Positions 27,607 to 45,662 are shown, counted from the stretch's first letter. The stretch: DNA of 64,000 bases from Patescibacteria group bacterium (GCA_041665345.1 JBAYJA010000001.1:73206-137205); one strand, 5' to 3'. A program made the numbers and translations. The notes: a model not told the origin generated them from the letters alone.

Positions 27607-27699
27607 ACGTGGATTTGAGTGTACGAATTTTACCTGTACTTGTCAAGGCGAGCCTATCATCGTACCCTAGAGAGAGAATCGAAACTAAGCCAAAAAGGT

Positions 27700-28782
27700 A
27701 TGTATAAACCCACTGGGTTCATCGCCCTCCCCACCCTGGGTCTGCTCATTCTTGTAGCAGCCGGCATTGCTTTTGCCTCCTGGTGGTTTGCGGGCAGGGA
27801 AGAAGCAGTAGCGCCAACCATTTCCAATTTTACGGAGTGCGCGGCAGCCGGGAATCCAGTGATGGAAAGTTACCCCCGCCAGTGTAATGCGAATGGCCAG
27901 AATTTTGTGGAGGTGATTGTGAATACGAATGCAGTGGTGAATGAGAATGTGCCCGGCGAAGCCGGGTCCGGCTCCGCCGGAAATGTTGGAGTGAACAGTA
28001 ATACCAACGCTGCGACGAACACGAATGTCGCGGTGAATGGAAATACAAATATTGTTGCAGATCCAACCGCGGGGTGGAAGACGTACACGAGTACGACGCA
28101 CGGTTTTTCGCTGAAATACCCAACAACAATGCGTGTCTTGGAAGTGAACGAAACGAATGGGATTATTCTTCGTGTTGGGGTCGCTGGTAGTTCTAATGGA
28201 GATAATATTTTAATTTATAATAAAAGTGCTAATTCTGGTATACCGTATAGTACGGTTAAAACTGGGAATGGTAGAACGTTTGTCATTTCCCATGTTGGAA
28301 CTGAGGCTGATCTAATCCTCTCCACCTTCACTATCCTTGATGCGACTAAAAATTGGAACGAGTTTACAAATAAACCCTGGGGTTTTTCCTTCAAGTACCC
28401 GAAAGAGTGGAAAGTATTGCAAAATTCTATCCAGGCAATTGATACAATGGGGCTGCCGGAAAACGTACTGAAGATCGGGGCAAGTCCACGGCCTATATTC
28501 GTATTGTATGTCGATCCAATGGGTTGGGGGGTTGGAAATGTGCACTATGCAATGACGGTAAAAAAGCAAAACGACAAATTTATCATTGTTGAAGGAAAAC
28601 CTACTGGTGCAAAAACAGGGGAATTTGGGTTAAGTGAATACTATTCAGTAAGTGTCAGGCAAGAAAATGCAGAAAATCCTCGAATATACATTAGCTTTCA
28701 TTCAGCAATAAAAGCTGAAGAATCTGCTGAATTTAATTCCTTGGTAAGACAAATTATTTCAACCTTTACTTTCACAAAGTAA
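27700..28782 (+). CDS. Membrane-anchored hypothetical protein with an Asn-rich linker and duplicated DPTAGWKTYT..YP modules; tandem paralog of the next gene.
   Basis: TM helix IALPTLGLLILVAAGIAF, linker NTNAVVNEN...NSNTNAATNTNVAVNGNTN, repeats DPTAGWKTYTSTTHGFSLKYP and KPWGFSFKYPKEW. The C-terminal half is markedly AT-richer. Confidence 0.55.
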   Translation: MYKPTGFIALPTLGLLILVAAGIAFASWWFAGREEAVAPTISNFTECAAAGNPVMESYPRQCNANGQNFVEVIVNTNAVVNENVPGEAGSGSAGNVGVNSNTNAATNTNVAVNGNTNIVADPTAGWKTYTSTTHGFSLKYPTTMRVLEVNETNGIILRVGVAGSSNGDNILIYNKSANSGIPYSTVKTGNGRTFVISHVGTEADLILSTFTILDATKNWNEFTNKPWGFSFKYPKEWKVLQNSIQAIDTMGLPENVLKIGASPRPIFVLYVDPMGWGVGNVHYAMTVKKQNDKFIIVEGKPTGAKTGEFGLSEYYSVSVRQENAENPRIYISFHSAIKAEESAEFNSLVRQIISTFTFTK

Positions 28783-28786
28783 GTAT

Positions 28787-30004
28787 ATGCATAACCACCC
28801 CAAAGGTTTTCTCCCCATCGCGGTGGTCCTGGTTGCAGTTGTTGCCGCACTGGTTGTTGCCGGTGCGTCGTACTGGTACACCAAGGATAAAGCTGAGGAA
28901 GTAGTGAATACCAATACTGCCGTCCTTACCAATACGAACACGGTGAATGAGAATGTGAATGTTGCAGTGAATAGCAACGTCAATGCGACGAACACGAATG
29001 CGGCCGTGAATAACAACACGAATGCCGCTAACGGAACAAGTAAAACGTATACGTCAGCTACACGGGGTATCTCTTTCACCTACGCGCCAACATACGCTGA
29101 CTACAAGATTTTAGTGAAAGAAACTTCAAGTATGCTCTATGTCTACACTGAGGACATGAAACCCGAAGCCGGTCAGTTTGTTCAGTGGTTTACAAAAACA
29201 GCGTCGACCCCACTGAAGTCCGCAATTGAGCAACAGTTTTTGAAAGGCTACTCGTCCGCAGATTGCTTCGTTATCACGCCTGATACATACTCTGCTTCCA
29301 AGATGGGGTCAGGTTGGAACACTGCACGCATTGCGTACCCGCCCGCAGCGGTTAACGCGGAAAATCCATGGGTCGGCGCTGAGAAGTGTCCAAAGGTATA
29401 TACTGCGAGTAATGGTCTAAGTTACTTTGCGGAGGACAAGGATGATCCAACAAAGTTTTTCTTCTTTAGTATTGGGCAGTACATGATCCCCGCTGGGTCC
29501 GCCACGGTTGGTGAAAAAGGCTGGGAGGAAACGGTCACAATTGATCCAACGGTGGGGTGGAAGACGTATACGAATATGTCCTACGGGTACTCAATAAAAT
29601 ACCCAGCTGACTGGATTTTGGATATAGCATCAATTAGCTCTGGGGATTTGTATATTCTCACTAAGGAACGACAAGAAAAGTTAGACGCGAAAAAAATGAT
29701 TAGAGTTATGGACATTGGGGTCAAGGTATACACATCGGCATCAGACTTACCAAACAATTCAGTAAAGAAGCTAGGCTTTGAGGATTGGATTGATCAAGAG
29801 GCTGACTCATATGGTTTTATCAAACGCAAATCGATCACCCTGGATGGGGTTGTAGGCTATCAAGGCGTAGGCTCTGGTGATGGTGCTTCGTACCTAATTT
29901 TTATACAAAAAAGCGGGAGGATATATGAAATCCAGACCGGTGATACGCAATCTCCTTCACAAATTGAGCAGCTGGTGATAAATTCATTTATTTTTACGGA
30001 GTAG
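28787..30004 (+). CDS. Membrane-anchored hypothetical protein, paralog of 27700..28782.
   Basis: TM helix LPIAVVLVAVVAALVVAG, linker NTNTAVLTNTNTVNENVNVAVNSNVNATNTNAAVNNNTN, modules GTSKTYTSATRGISFTYAP and DPTVGWKTYTNMSYGYSIKYPADW. Confidence 0.55.
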   Translation: MHNHPKGFLPIAVVLVAVVAALVVAGASYWYTKDKAEEVVNTNTAVLTNTNTVNENVNVAVNSNVNATNTNAAVNNNTNAANGTSKTYTSATRGISFTYAPTYADYKILVKETSSMLYVYTEDMKPEAGQFVQWFTKTASTPLKSAIEQQFLKGYSSADCFVITPDTYSASKMGSGWNTARIAYPPAAVNAENPWVGAEKCPKVYTASNGLSYFAEDKDDPTKFFFFSIGQYMIPAGSATVGEKGWEETVTIDPTVGWKTYTNMSYGYSIKYPADWILDIASISSGDLYILTKERQEKLDAKKMIRVMDIGVKVYTSASDLPNNSVKKLGFEDWIDQEADSYGFIKRKSITLDGVVGYQGVGSGDGASYLIFIQKSGRIYEIQTGDTQSPSQIEQLVINSFIFTE

Positions 30005-41088: not shown

Positions 41089-41141
41089 CGGTAAGGCTTT
41101 CACCGGAGGGGACGTGGGCTAGCTATCAGCCTACGCATCAC

Positions 41142-41173
41142 GGGCGATCCATTGTGGATCGCCCACTTTTTTT
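41142..41173 (+). terminator. Rho-independent terminator or attenuator.
   Basis: GGGCGATCCA-TTG-TGGATCGCCC followed by ACTTTTTTTG. Confidence 0.55.
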
Positions 41174-41236
41174 GACACTGGCGGGGGAAGAGCATAAGCT
41201 AGGAGCAAGAGAAAACCGTGCAACCAAGGAGGAAAA

Positions 41237-41461
41237 ATGGCCTGGCATGTTGATTCAGAGGTACAACAGGCACTCGTGAAGTTGAATGATGCGCTGTGCA
41301 CCTTTGAGCGAAATACTTGCAGGAGGTATACGTTGGTGCTCATTCCCCATGCAGCAGATGAGCTGTGCCATGTATCACTCAGCGGGAAACCGATTTCTGA
41401 GGATTCCCAGCTCAAACCAGACGAGGCAGTTGCTATTGCCATAGCAGAGCGTGGGCACTAA
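41237..41461 (+). CDS. Hypothetical protein, 74 aa.
   Basis: ORF with RBS AAGGAGGAAAA. Confidence 0.35.
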   Translation: MAWHVDSEVQQALVKLNDALCTFERNTCRRYTLVLIPHAADELCHVSLSGKPISEDSQLKPDEAVAIAIAERGH

Positions 41462-41573
41462 GTCAGCCAAAATACTAGTTTTTTCCAGGTCAGCAATGGC
41501 CTGGATTTTTTTGGCAAAATGAAAACCGCACCGATGGAAATCCATGGTGCGGGAAAATGCGTGTGAATGTACT

Positions 41574-42083
41574 TTACTTTTTGGAAGCTTTGCAGGCTTC
41601 CAAGGCCACTTTCAGACCAGGCAACTGCTCATGAATGAACGGCTGCGGCAGGTCATCAACATTGTAGAATGTGCCTTCATATGGCACCGATTCATCCAGC
41701 ACACCCAGGTGGATGTTCTGCTGAATCTTCCCACGGTTGCCGAAGTCAGTGAAGAGCTCACCGACCATAACAGGCTTGCCGATCAATGCCCCTTTGATTT
41801 CTGTCCTAATGATGCGGGCGATCGCATCATCAATTGATGTATCGGTTTCCCGATACGTCGTGCCTGGGTAGTGCCAGGCAGACGGCCAATCCGGGTCACT
41901 GTCTGGGCGTTGGCTCAGGAGCACCTCAATGCTCTCGCCGTTTTCTCTCAGCACTATCAGCTCATAGGCTGGGCTGGGCATCTTGTTACTCAACGCCCGA
42001 AAAACCAGATACGGTTTTGGGCTGGGCATGCGGTTCAGTAGTTCGATAATCAACCGACTATCGTCTTCTGTCCATTCGAACAT
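41574..42083 (-). CDS. Hypothetical protein, 169 aa, in a low-GC island.
   Basis: ORF only; no family recognised. Confidence 0.45.
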   Translation of the reverse strand: MFEWTEDDSRLIIELLNRMPSPKPYLVFRALSNKMPSPAYELIVLRENGESIEVLLSQRPDSDPDWPSAWHYPGTTYRETDTSIDDAIARIIRTEIKGALIGKPVMVGELFTDFGNRGKIQQNIHLGVLDESVPYEGTFYNVDDLPQPFIHEQLPGLKVALEACKASKK

Positions 42084-42361
42084 CGTACCTCCTAAGGTTT
42101 GGATTCAAGTTGTAAAGGTTTTACTGCATATTGACTGCACAGTATTGCATAGGACAAGCGTTCTGTCAAGGGTTTGTACTGTGAACACCTAGAGGAGGGA
42201 GCCTAGCTAATCAAATAACGTTTGCATGAAAATGGGTCTTTGGTCATACTCTGGATAGAAATAAACGTTGACCAGACCTCTGTTTCGATGCCACGAGGGC
42301 GTAAAACTGCCGCAAGGCGGTTACCACGACAGGCGATCCATTCTGGGTCGCCTGATTTTTT

Positions 42362-42394
42362 GCAAAAAAATCCCCGCTACAATTTGCAGCGGGG
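42362..42394 (-). terminator. Rho-independent terminator for 42410..42991.
   Basis: Minus strand reads CCCCGCT-GCAAATTGT-AGCGGGG followed by ATTTTTTTG. Confidence 0.6.
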
Positions 42395-42409
42395 TAGATT
42401 TTACGTTTT

Positions 42410-42991
42410 CTACGTTGACGGAGCGTCACTTGCACGCTCTTTTTGTTGAGAGTTTTGGTTGTCCTCAAATAATTCTTCGATCATTGGGAACCGATCCCGT
42501 TGGTCGTAGTAGTCCTTGAGATTGTACATGACCTTTTGATCGATCGCACTGAGCGGCAGGCTGTGGGGGCAGTCTTTGCTTAAAAAAGTGATTCCAATCC
42601 GAGTGGTCAATGACATAGCAAAGTTTTCAGGTGCAACGATGTGCAGAGGCACATTCGCCTGATGGCACCAGGCACATTTGGAAATAATAAATGGATGGTG
42701 CCGCTGTATGCGCAAAGTCATACTTTCATGTAGAACGTTGCCATACCCCAGCCGTACGAGGCAATCATGAATTGCCACCCAAGTTTTTTCGAAAGCGTCT
42801 TGCAACGCGTGGAAGTGCTTACGCACAGCATCGTCTGAGAGCTTACCTTCCTCATAAAAAGCTGCTACTCGAACCGTGTCCTTCTGCGCCAGTGCTTGCG
42901 GATTGTCAAGCACCGACAGAATTTCCTCGAGTTCAATACTCTGCACATCTTCCATGTATTTCCTTTCGTTTGTAATGTTCTGTTTATTCAA
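42410..42991 (-). CDS. Hypothetical protein, 193 aa, in a low-GC island.
   Basis: ORF only. Confidence 0.45.
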   Translation of the reverse strand: MNKQNITNERKYMEDVQSIELEEILSVLDNPQALAQKDTVRVAAFYEEGKLSDDAVRKHFHALQDAFEKTWVAIHDCLVRLGYGNVLHESMTLRIQRHHPFIISKCAWCHQANVPLHIVAPENFAMSLTTRIGITFLSKDCPHSLPLSAIDQKVMYNLKDYYDQRDRFPMIEELFEDNQNSQQKERASDAPST

Positions 42992-43044
42992 GGCACAGTA
43001 CCATACATCGCGGCTTTGTCAAGCTTCTGGCAGGTGTATACTAA

Positions 43045-43352
43045 TGCATATGGATCCGCTTACCGAGAAAACGCAGAATACTGGCTTCAATCGGTCGGAC
43101 TACCTCCTTGCCGCGCTGGGCTACGTCTGGTTCGTCTGCGTACTCATCTGGCTCTGGAAAAAGGACGATGCATTTATCAGCCAGCACGCGAAAAATGGTA
43201 CGGCGCTTTTCGTGCTTTCCATTCTCTGGTTCATTCCCGGAGTTGGGTTCATTGTTTTGCTCTTTGAGCTGTACGGATTCTTTGTGGCCTTTGTGGGGAA
43301 GCCGTGGAAAATGCCGCTCATTGGCGATTGGTTGGAGAAGTTCAAGCTGTAA
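43045..43352 (+). CDS. Small membrane protein, 102 aa, DUF4870-like.
   Basis: Two TM helices (LLAALGYVWFVCVLIWLW; ALFVLSILWFIPGVGFIVLLF). Start chosen at MHMDPL. Confidence 0.45.
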
Positions 43353-43509
43353 TTTCCATAGATTCATTCGTTCGTACGAAACTTGACACTATGCCGTTCA
43401 TTGTCTAAGCTGTTTTGTCATGCGTTCTATTGTATGACGTAGTGCATGATCATTGAAATTTAAATAATTTAAGAGCCGAACATAGTTTAACAACCGAAGG
43501 AGGACAAAC

Positions 43510-45543
43510 ATGTCATTACGGCAACCGAGTGTTGGTACCTATCCAAAGGCATTAAGTTTTTGGAACGAAGGCACTGACCAAGTGACCATCATTAACCCTG
43601 AAGACTTCCCACGGGAAGCAATTTTGAAGGGGTTAGACCTGAGGAACCATCCCTTAGCCAAGGGCTTTGGAAACTGCGATGAGACCGAAGCCTATGAACG
43701 TATTGAGGTAATGCGTTTCTTAGGTGAGCACCCTGGGGTGCGCAAAGCAATCATTCAGCTCGCCAACACGTACAGCGTGCCGACGAGCCAAGAAAGATTC
43801 CAGACGTACTACGATCCCGCTCAGCCGGCAACCCCATTCTGGGCAGCCGTGCATACCCTGTGTGATGAGCTTGGTCCTACGGCTGCGCTACCCAAGCGCT
43901 TGCGGATTTTTGCCGGGACAATCCAGAGTTTTTTGGGTCTGGAAGCGGATGAACGTTTGATGGCCACCGCCGTCGCGGAAATTCTTGATTCTACGGCGGT
44001 TCTTGAAGGACTATTGGAGTTCGAAGTTTCGATTGACTCTGAGGAACGCTTCAGATCCTTTATGAAAGTGGGAAAGCCAAATTCCTTTGATGCTGTGGCA
44101 GCCGCATCGACCATCAGCTGCAAGCACTACGCAACGAAAGTGTTCCATGGTCATCGGACATTCAGCTTTGCGCTTTCGGAAGCCCGCATGAAGAAGTATC
44201 CGAAGTGGTTTGAGCAAAAGTGGAATCCCTGGCGATGGATTGCGCGGGGCATTCGGCAAGCCTGGATTGACTGGTCGAACAAACGCCAGGAAGTCAAGGC
44301 GAGTCGCCCCATGGTGATTACGCAGAGCAAAGAGGTTCTGGAAGATCTGGTGGAGGCTCTGCCCCGTATTCTCGCGAATAATGAGAAGCTTTATCGTAGT
44401 CTGCATTCGGGCACCATTCTCACGGTGTACTTTACCTACGGAAAGTACCAGGATGATTCCGATGGTCTGCAAATCCGTATTACAGACGCGCGAATGAAGA
44501 AGGAGCAAACAAACCCGAAAGAGTTTTTTTTCGAATTTGTAACCTTTGCTGGCTATTCTCGTGAGCGACTGAAGCTCATCGACCAAGCACGTCGGGAAAC
44601 TAGGGAAGCGATTCAACGCGTGCAAACGTCAGCCGCGGATGCATCACTGCGGAGTGAGCTTATTCAAGCAGATCCAATCTTCTTCACGACCAGCCTGCGT
44701 GTTCCATCGCCGAAAACCGATCTGGAGCATAGATGGAAGTCGGTGGGGAATTTGTACCAAACCAGAGATTTAGCCCCGACGTACAACGCGATGGTTGAGC
44801 TGCAGGTTTTCTGCCATTCCCACGCAAACATTCTCGGTCACATGTGCGACATTCTTTCCCGGTACACCAAACGAGCGAAAGAATTACATGCCACGGTCTC
44901 GTTCCCCGAGATCGTTATCAATGGCCATGAGAATGTTGTGGAGTTTGAGGAACTCTATCCGTTGCACCTTGGTGGCGCCCTCAAAGGCAACGTGGTACCA
45001 ATTAACGGCTTACCACCGGTAAATGGCACAATGATTGGTCTTACGGGCACGCATGGTGGTGGTAAGACCGTCACCGAGCATACCCTGGTGGCGAATATCT
45101 ACCTGGCCATGAGTGGCTTACCCATCCTGGGTCAGCGATTCCGATTGAATTGTAAGACTCACCTGGGGATGGTTTTCATTGAAGGAGTTAGTGGTCAGTC
45201 GGTCTGTCAGCTGCTCATCGATAAAACTGCCAGCGTGTTTAAAGCCATCGACAAGATCCCGGGTCGCAACGTGATCCTGGTCCTCGACGAACTTGGCTCG
45301 GCGACTCAGGAAAAAGATGGATCCCGGGTGGCCCTCCTCGTCCTGAAGGCGTTGTACGAACGCCAGGTTAGCCTCCTCTTTAGTACACAGATTATGGATG
45401 TGGCAGTTGCCGCCGAGAAAGAATTTGGCGCCAAGTGCTTCAAGGTGGATCGCAACCACCGTCTTGTTCCCGGTATTGGGAGTGGTGAGATTGACCAGTT
45501 GGTTCGTGACTCTGGCTTGGCCAAGTATCTGGTAAATAATTAG
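43510..45543 (+). CDS. MutS2-like ABC-ATPase domain (MutS domain V) fused to a roughly 470-aa N-terminal region of unknown function; no Smr domain.
   Basis: Walker A IGLTGTHGGGKTVTEHT (MutS2: ITGPNTGGKTVTLKT). Walker B VILVLDELGSATQEKDGSRVALLVLKAL (MutS2: [20 protein letters not shown]). STQIMDV (MutS2: TTHYPEL). RBS AAGGAGGA. Confidence 0.65.
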   Translation: MSLRQPSVGTYPKALSFWNEGTDQVTIINPEDFPREAILKGLDLRNHPLAKGFGNCDETEAYERIEVMRFLGEHPGVRKAIIQLANTYSVPTSQERFQTYYDPAQPATPFWAAVHTLCDELGPTAALPKRLRIFAGTIQSFLGLEADERLMATAVAEILDSTAVLEGLLEFEVSIDSEERFRSFMKVGKPNSFDAVAAASTISCKHYATKVFHGHRTFSFALSEARMKKYPKWFEQKWNPWRWIARGIRQAWIDWSNKRQEVKASRPMVITQSKEVLEDLVEALPRILANNEKLYRSLHSGTILTVYFTYGKYQDDSDGLQIRITDARMKKEQTNPKEFFFEFVTFAGYSRERLKLIDQARRETREAIQRVQTSAADASLRSELIQADPIFFTTSLRVPSPKTDLEHRWKSVGNLYQTRDLAPTYNAMVELQVFCHSHANILGHMCDILSRYTKRAKELHATVSFPEIVINGHENVVEFEELYPLHLGGALKGNVVPINGLPPVNGTMIGLTGTHGGGKTVTEHTLVANIYLAMSGLPILGQRFRLNCKTHLGMVFIEGVSGQSVCQLLIDKTASVFKAIDKIPGRNVILVLDELGSATQEKDGSRVALLVLKALYERQVSLLFSTQIMDVAVAAEKEFGAKCFKVDRNHRLVPGIGSGEIDQLVRDSGLAKYLVNN

Positions 45544-45556
45544 TTGCACTTTTCAG

Positions 45557-45587
45557 CACCGCTTCTCCATAGAGGCGGTGTTTTTTT
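45557..45587 (+). terminator. Rho-independent terminator.
   Basis: CACCGC-TTCTCCATAGAG-GCGGTG followed by TTTTTTT. Confidence 0.6.
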
Positions 45588-45662
45588 CATTAGGCAGATG
45601 GTAATTTTTTTGCTACACTACGATTACTATTTCGCTCTCGTTTCCGTAAAAATACACCTTTT

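Follow-up and report, generated by a model that had tools for sequence, protein, structure and literature searches.

A stand-alone MutS-type ATPase with a glutamine H-loop, encoded between groEL and ppsA in a Patescibacteria genome

The window considered here, a stretch of 64,000 nucleotides (nt) from a Patescibacteria group bacterium (GCA_041665345.1, JBAYJA010000001.1:73206-137205), encodes a MutS-like ATPase of 677 amino acids (aa), hereafter X, whose gene (gene X, 43510..45543, + strand) lies between groEL upstream and ppsA downstream. An initial annotation, made from the sequence alone, had reported this open reading frame (ORF) and its placement, together with a strong ribosome-binding site and a terminator of its own, and these points are borne out: a Shine-Dalgarno GGAGG (43499..43503, +) stands 6 nt before the ATG, and an intrinsic-terminator-like element (45555..45590, +), 12 nt past the stop codon, consists of a hairpin of 12 pairs (45555..45582) followed by a T-run. 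Two public gene models exist for X, one of 637 aa (WC786_04920) and one of 677 aa (WCV85_00575, "hypothetical protein"); the longer is favoured because residues 1-40 are conserved in relatives, and the N-terminus MSLRKPSVG...YP is common to five full-length ones.

The C-terminal third of X is a complete MutS-type ATP-binding cassette (ABC) ATPase, with MutS2 as its nearest relative. This domain, of the MutS domain V type, spans residues 459-677 together with a C-terminal helix-turn-helix (44884..45540, +), and the chain stops straight after the latter. Its assignment as a MutS2-like domain V, already made in the initial annotation, is confirmed by several searches: X alone found Thermotoga MutS2 (9kce) among the PDB sequences (phmmer, E 2.4e-8), a profile of 105 family sequences reached MutS2 at E 2.7e-15 and MutS/MSH at ~1e-8 in the same database, and the family profile scored MutS2 above MutS1 (59 vs 36 bits). 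In hhalign comparisons with ten genuine MutS2 proteins, family columns 443-665 aligned on MutS2 278-503 with 99 % probability and an E-value of 4e-19. As for Pfam, the MutS_V score of X alone (PF00488, 22.4 bits) fell under the cut-off of 30.2, and the same family was matched by 52 of the 56 members scanned one by one.

The motifs named in that annotation, GLTGTHGGGKT, LVLDELGSAT and STQ, align with ITGPNTGGKT, LLDELGxGT and TTH of MutS2. Walker A occupies residues 510-520 (45037..45069, +), Walker B and the D-loop, ILVLDELGSATQ, residues 589-600 (45274..45309, +), and S-T-Q residues 625-627 (45382..45390, +), at the place where MutS has the "T-H" H-loop. In the family alignment, K519, S564, D593 and E594 are each found in 105 of 105 sequences, and G513 is invariant too; S564, the signature-like Ser, corresponds in the alignment to the Ser within MutS2 "LSTFS". 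The Walker A (GxxxxGK[ST]) and Walker B (hhhhDE) patterns of the MutS superfamily are both present in X, while the H-loop histidine is not: the His of MutS2 "TTH" aligns with Q627, and this position is Gln in 104 of the 105 members. The His-to-Gln change is a family-defining substitution, the other catalytic residues being invariant.

Regarding its classification, the sequence of X places it in the MutS superfamily by its ATPase, and outside MutS2, MutS1 and KamC by the features that define each of these groups. With MutS2 (PDB 9kce, 7vuf, 7qv3; TIGR01069) X shares its best-matching ATPase, from the end of the lever helix to the helix-turn-helix, the absence of MutS domains I and II, long helices that run into the ATPase, and Walker A, Walker B, the signature-like Ser and the D-loop. 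Unlike MutS2, X has neither Smr (no PF01713) nor KOW/MSSS SH3 (no PF20297) nor the coiled-coil linker; its N-terminal region exceeds the MutS2 core by ~170 residues and cannot be aligned to it by sequence, the structural model adds two long beta-hairpin inserts, Gln replaces the H-loop His, and the TIGR01069 score is 19.9 bits against an equivalog cut-off of 400. The comparison with MutS1/MSH (PDB 1e3m, 2o8b) is similar in kind; the ATPase is homologous (E ~1e-8) and the whole chain can be superposed by Foldseek (E ~1e-13), but X lacks the mismatch-binding domain I, the connector domain II and any MutS_III or MutS_IV recognisable by sequence.

A further precedent in architecture is offered by the uncharacterised prokaryotic and viral MutS subfamilies that lack domains I and II (Ogata et al. 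2011, e.g. MutS8; summarised in PMC12292046). Like these, X combines a MutS ATPase and a probable lever with no mismatch-recognition domains, and its function is uncharacterised; compared by description with the numbered subfamilies, the X family seems to stand apart by its own N-terminal module, its His-to-Gln H-loop and its apparent confinement to Patescibacteria. Patescibacteria had not been recognised when that classification was made, and no description of the family within the candidate phyla radiation (CPR) was found in the searchable literature.

The region ahead of the ATPase is more difficult to place, and here the initial annotation, which described it as unrelated to MutS and counted the mismatch-binding, connector, clamp and Smr domains as lost, holds only in part. 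At the level of sequence it stands: Pfam and NCBIfam scans gave no match for the N-terminal module, MutS_I-IV and Smr (including PF01624 and PF05188) matched none of 56 family members scanned individually, and residues 1-445 had no significant similarity to MutS2 1-285 in the local, greedy or global modes of hhalign (E 0.57). Forcing a global alignment of the N-terminus with the MutS2 core lowered the score from 174 to 144. However, it should be noted that such a negative is weak evidence, for a true MutS2 itself obtains 25.6 bits on MutS_III, whose cut-off is 34.1.

Structure prediction leads to a different view. The AlphaFold2 model of X built on the 105-sequence alignment has a predicted local distance difference test (pLDDT) of 93 and a predicted template modelling score (pTM) of 0.84; it replaced an earlier model from 6 sequences, with a pLDDT of 58 and the ATPase disordered. 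The top Foldseek matches of the model are all MSH2, MutS, MutS2 or MutS7, in alignments of 660-730 columns, and viral MutS7 and MutS8 models are among its matches. The E-values improve with the length of chain used, from ~1e-6 for the ATPase only to ~1e-9..-11 for ATPase plus lever and ~1e-13 for the whole chain, with identities in the structural alignments to MutS1/MSH of merely 10-14 %.

In this model, and from column conservation, the first 350 residues form a family-specific module (43510..44559, +). Its conserved motifs, IIN..DFP and D..EI..R, lie in a short N-terminal segment before a helical bundle (58-160), and E60 and R64 are invariant. Two long beta-hairpins follow, at 163-216 (with invariant G214) and 302-329, with helices 240-297 between them; the segment 219-300 is basic, Trp-rich and helical, and includes a Trp-/Lys-rich helix at 230-268. 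Residues 351-458 (44560..44883, +) resemble a lever/clamp arm that continues into the ATPase: two antiparallel helices of 37 residues (351-387 and 422-458) are joined by a conserved tip of 34 residues with the pattern SP..D....W.A..NLY. In hhalign, the last part of helix 422-458 is paired with that of the MutS2 lever helix, and alignments of Msh3 to the family profile extend back to about profile position 329.

Judged from the model, the N-terminal region of X is probably a very divergent MutS core and lever with family-specific beta-hairpin inserts. The lever-like helix pair and the helical core are the reason for preferring a divergent core/lever/clamp to an unrelated fusion partner; with the whole chain aligning to the MutS family in a model of this quality, both the description of the region as unrelated and the claim that X has no clamp become doubtful, whereas the absence of matches to Pfam MutS_I-IV and Smr stands.

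If the N-terminal module were instead of non-MutS origin, X might serve a client other than nucleic acid, whether by chaperoning or reactivating it or as a machine associated with the membrane, and this we consider unlikely. The model for it is KamC, the lysine 5,6-aminomutase reactivase (NF052383), a MutS-type ATPase whose role is unrelated to DNA and in which a non-MutS N-terminal region likewise precedes the ATPase at the C-terminus. KamC is the best NCBIfam match of X, and residues 1-445 resemble no known domain by sequence; the lever tip is neutral to acidic, a Trp-/Lys-rich helix lies at 230-268, and in this lineage X adjoins groEL and a membrane protein. However, the NCBIfam matches, to KamC and MutS2, are weak; KamC scores 21.3 bits where the cut-off is 300, over the shared ATPase core only. 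No aminomutase genes lie nearby, the top whole-chain Foldseek matches are exclusively from the MutS family, and the neighbourhood with groEL and the DUF4870-like membrane protein is limited to one lineage. Segment charges leave the substrate unsettled, since the neutral to acidic tip coexists with basic patches at 219-300 and 351-387.

A related view, which we hold to be about as doubtful, is that the family is a CPR-specific reinvention of MutS, whose new recognition module holds a target that is neither mismatched nor branched DNA. The dimeric ATP switch would have been kept, slowed by the His-to-Gln H-loop, and the DNA-reading domains would have been replaced by the N-terminal motifs, two beta-hairpin arms of ~50 angstrom and the aromatic, non-basic lever tip; candidate clients would be the CPR ribosome, which is unusual, or some other large complex, either a nucleoprotein or one close to the membrane. 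If true, this would amount to an unrecognised housekeeping activity of ultra-small episymbiotic bacteria.

As for its distribution, X had been presented as a fusion to a novel N-terminal domain; the size of the family shows that it is no singular fusion. An exhaustive search with a hidden Markov model (HMM) over 1.84 billion representatives, clustered at 50 % identity, returned 386 matches, of which at least 203 clusters had E<=1e-30. Nearly all of these measure 640-700 aa, and the match extends from residue ~10 through the C-terminus; one full-length architecture characterises the family of at least 203 clusters. A word-indexed homolog search found merely 6 relatives, and its repetition added no new family members; set against at least 203 clusters, it grossly underestimates the family. 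Scanning a single genome for each species with a sequence pattern located 32 loci carrying the family (these and the other loci with X homologs are labelled L001, L002 and so on). The lineages named for the carriers are mostly Patescibacteria groups, among them Parcu-, Nomura-, Nealson-, Falkow-, Uhr- and Vogelbacteria, Paceibacterota and "Patescibacteria group", and all members with a source name are annotated "hypothetical protein".

The family is apparently restricted to Patescibacteria. Eight contigs (L008, L012, L014, L018, L025, L028, L029 and L032) are labelled Gammaproteobacteria, archaeon, Methanosarcinales or Micavibrio; they are probably mislabelled or mis-binned CPR contigs, and if those labels are correct the family is not confined to Patescibacteria. 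At two further loci, L026 (5887-8048) and L031 (5782-7976), the homolog is split into two ORFs with a 4-nt overlap; a frameshift, decay to a pseudogene or a fault of assembly could each account for this.

The sequence data indicate that gene X is resident and vertically inherited rather than part of a foreign island. Against a baseline of the 53 window ORFs of at least 100 aa (G+C content, GC, 0.528 +/- 0.036; GC at third codon positions, GC3, 0.577 +/- 0.077), gene X has a GC of 0.516 (z -0.34) and a GC3 of 0.578 (z 0.01), and of the 24 genes of at least 300 aa it lies nearest to the pooled codon usage. The "low-GC island" of the initial annotation is therefore not confirmed for X; the visual contrast arises because the flanking groEL and ppsA are GC3-rich (0.665 each). 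In the related locus L001, where the genes run Wzy ... groES-groEL-[189 aa, minus strand]-[113-aa DUF4870-like]-X-ppsA, the arrangement groES-groEL-...-DUF4870-X-ppsA is conserved; L003 is the same sequence as L001, and so the synteny rests on one independent genome. Moreover, a homolog 42 % identical to X has a GC of 0.41 in a host genome of 38 % GC. Typical composition, kept synteny and homologs that track the GC of their hosts together argue for vertical descent with amelioration to each host, and against the horizontal acquisition that had been proposed. Synteny kept together with uniform composition, the pattern which the initial annotation had itself named as contrary to its reading, is largely what is seen.

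Between the window and L001, GroEL is 92 % identical, PpsA 85 %, the membrane protein 71 % and X (43510-45543 vs L001 8001-10040) 55 %, values which suggest that X evolves much faster than its housekeeping neighbours GroEL and PpsA. A nearby Wzy-type O-antigen ligase-like protein is also 55 % identical between the two.

Gene X stands alone: all-against-all BLAST of the neighbours in 34 loci revealed no recurrent neighbour family beyond duplicate records, and the gap upstream of X is typically 150-300 nt across loci. The annotated neighbours elsewhere include RecR, LytR, SecA (two loci), ribonucleotide reductase (two loci), DnaE and DnaG, together with LepA (L002, L016), L31, SAICAR synthetase, an ABC exporter and a histidine kinase; in L034 the L31 gene overlaps the end of X. 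No second MutS paralogue was found in the window or in the loci examined.

MutS-type ATPases are known as mismatch sensors, as regulators of recombination and, more recently, as splitters of collided ribosomes. MutS proteins form head-to-head dimers, in which a signature-like Ser of one partner completes the ATP site of the other and the lever/clamp arms open or close according to the nucleotide state; the residues required for the dimeric ATP sites and for arm switching are all invariant in the X family. The reading that we favour, and regard as reasonably probable, is that X represents a vertically inherited, stand-alone and uncharacterised MutS subfamily of Patescibacteria, working as a dimeric, nuclease-less, ATP-gated clamp on nucleic acid. 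By analogy with other MutS proteins, X would form a head-to-head dimer joined at the ATPase domains, in which the invariant Ser564 completes the ATP site of the partner; on binding of ATP, the two arms would close on a bulky nucleic-acid substrate. Degenerate ABC sites hydrolyse ATP more slowly, which favours a long-lived ATP-bound state, and by the same token the Gln in place of the H-loop His suggests slow hydrolysis and a long-lived ATP-bound clamp in X. Because it has no nuclease domain, X would act as a sensor, a blocker, a remodeller or a recruiter of an unlinked partner.

Regarding the substrate of this putative clamp, the MutS2 core, which is without domains I and II, has a wide channel and binds Holliday junctions and D-loops (PMC12292046). 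By analogy, the likeliest substrate of X would be branched or recombination-intermediate DNA. Since the MutS2 core binds junctions, and X lacks SMR and KOW, a branched-DNA clamp is ranked first, the ribosome second and a client other than nucleic acid third.

A role in ribosome rescue deserves attention because MutS2, the closest characterised relative, splits collided ribosomes by means of its lever/clamp/ATPase module (PMC10897456). With its ATPase motifs intact, X could be an analogue that clamps or splits stalled or collided CPR ribosomes, its N-terminal module replacing KOW and Smr for recruitment, and translation-related neighbours do occur (LepA in L002 and L016, L31 in L034); nevertheless, such neighbours are no commoner than those of replication and repair (RecR, DnaE, DnaG, ribonucleotide reductase). 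Above all, SMR and KOW are needed to recruit MutS2 to the ribosome (PMC10897456), whereas X has neither, and no Smr- or KOW-like segment that could act in trans was found in the 64-kb window or within +/-6 kb of 32 loci, also with an HMM built from MutS2. We therefore consider ribosome rescue distinctly unlikely.

X defines a further MutS-type subfamily spread across many lineages of Patescibacteria with very small genomes, and because the host genomes are so small, a conserved gene of 2 kb is unlikely to be dispensable. The intact ATP site, the Gln H-loop, the absence of a nuclease and an arm that is not recognisable by sequence make X a clean test case for a bare MutS clamp.

Turning to the neighbouring genes, the initial annotation had grouped X with a small membrane protein and two minus-strand hypotheticals. 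The membrane protein (100 aa, WCV85_00570) exists, with a start more likely at 43050 (43050..43352, +; the ORF is open from 43044) than at 43045, which is off by one and out of frame; its score on DUF4870 (PF09685) is 22.0 bits (E 1.7e-4), just below the cut-off of 25. The orthologue in the same position in L001 reaches 16.5 bits on DUF4870 and has 2-3 hydrophobic segments, and only in this closely related genome does such a gene lie beside X. The two hypotheticals exist as well. One (42410..42991, -; 193 aa) has no family match and the lowest GC of the block (0.467); it resembles only faintly the 189-aa ORF that occupies the equivalent place in L001, and its exact sequence was absent from the public protein records searched; the other is ORF169 (41574..42083, -; 169 aa), which has an NCBI gene model. 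The list was incomplete, since a further gene was overlooked: ORF74 (41237..41461, +; 74 aa, hypothetical protein WCV85_00555) has an AGGAGG ribosome-binding site, a terminator of its own (41484-41505) and no family match.

ORF74 and ORF169 share a segment (41140..42361) that is missing from L001 and is bracketed by two terminator-like hairpins of 33 nt (41140-41172 and 42329-42361), 82 % identical, 1,189 nt apart and the sole two copies in the window. From its sequence, this ~1.2-kb segment is best taken as a local indel unrelated to X, and it looks like an insertion or a deletion mediated by the repeated terminator. Rfam scans of the spacer between groEL and X, hairpin repeats included, matched no RNA family.

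The remaining proposal is that X, the DUF4870 protein and the two hypotheticals act together in a horizontally acquired, low-GC island of defence or surveillance, which we judge very improbable and already largely refuted. Some observations fit it: the GC is 0.462 in the block at 42-43 kb and 0.467 in the 193-aa ORF, the segment within the direct repeat is an indel of ~1.2 kb, and X diverges faster than groEL and PpsA. However, the 193-aa ORF alone is lowish in GC (z -1.7), and X itself departs from the window neither in composition nor in codon usage, keeps its place between groEL and ppsA, and has homologs that match the GC of their own genomes. The four genes are not a conserved set: only the DUF4870-like gene stays beside X, only in L001, and the small ORFs accompany X in none of 30 other genomes, where its neighbours are varied housekeeping genes. 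In PADLOC-DB 2.0, X and the two minus-strand ORFs gave nothing significant, the best match of X being mad8 (E 0.037, 11.6 bits). X thus provides no evidence for a defence island or for gene transfer in the window, and the claims of an island, of horizontal transfer, of defence and of a unique fusion fail, while the uncharacterised family with its distinctive H-loop and arm module is real.

The lowest-GC stretch of the window lies elsewhere, at 27619-30004 (+), with a GC of 0.42-0.45. It holds two adjacent, paralogous-looking genes of ~400 aa with weak PsbP_2 domains, which are the strongest codon-usage outliers among the long genes of the window. DNA of foreign origin or rapid evolution is more plausibly sought in this stretch than in the block around X.

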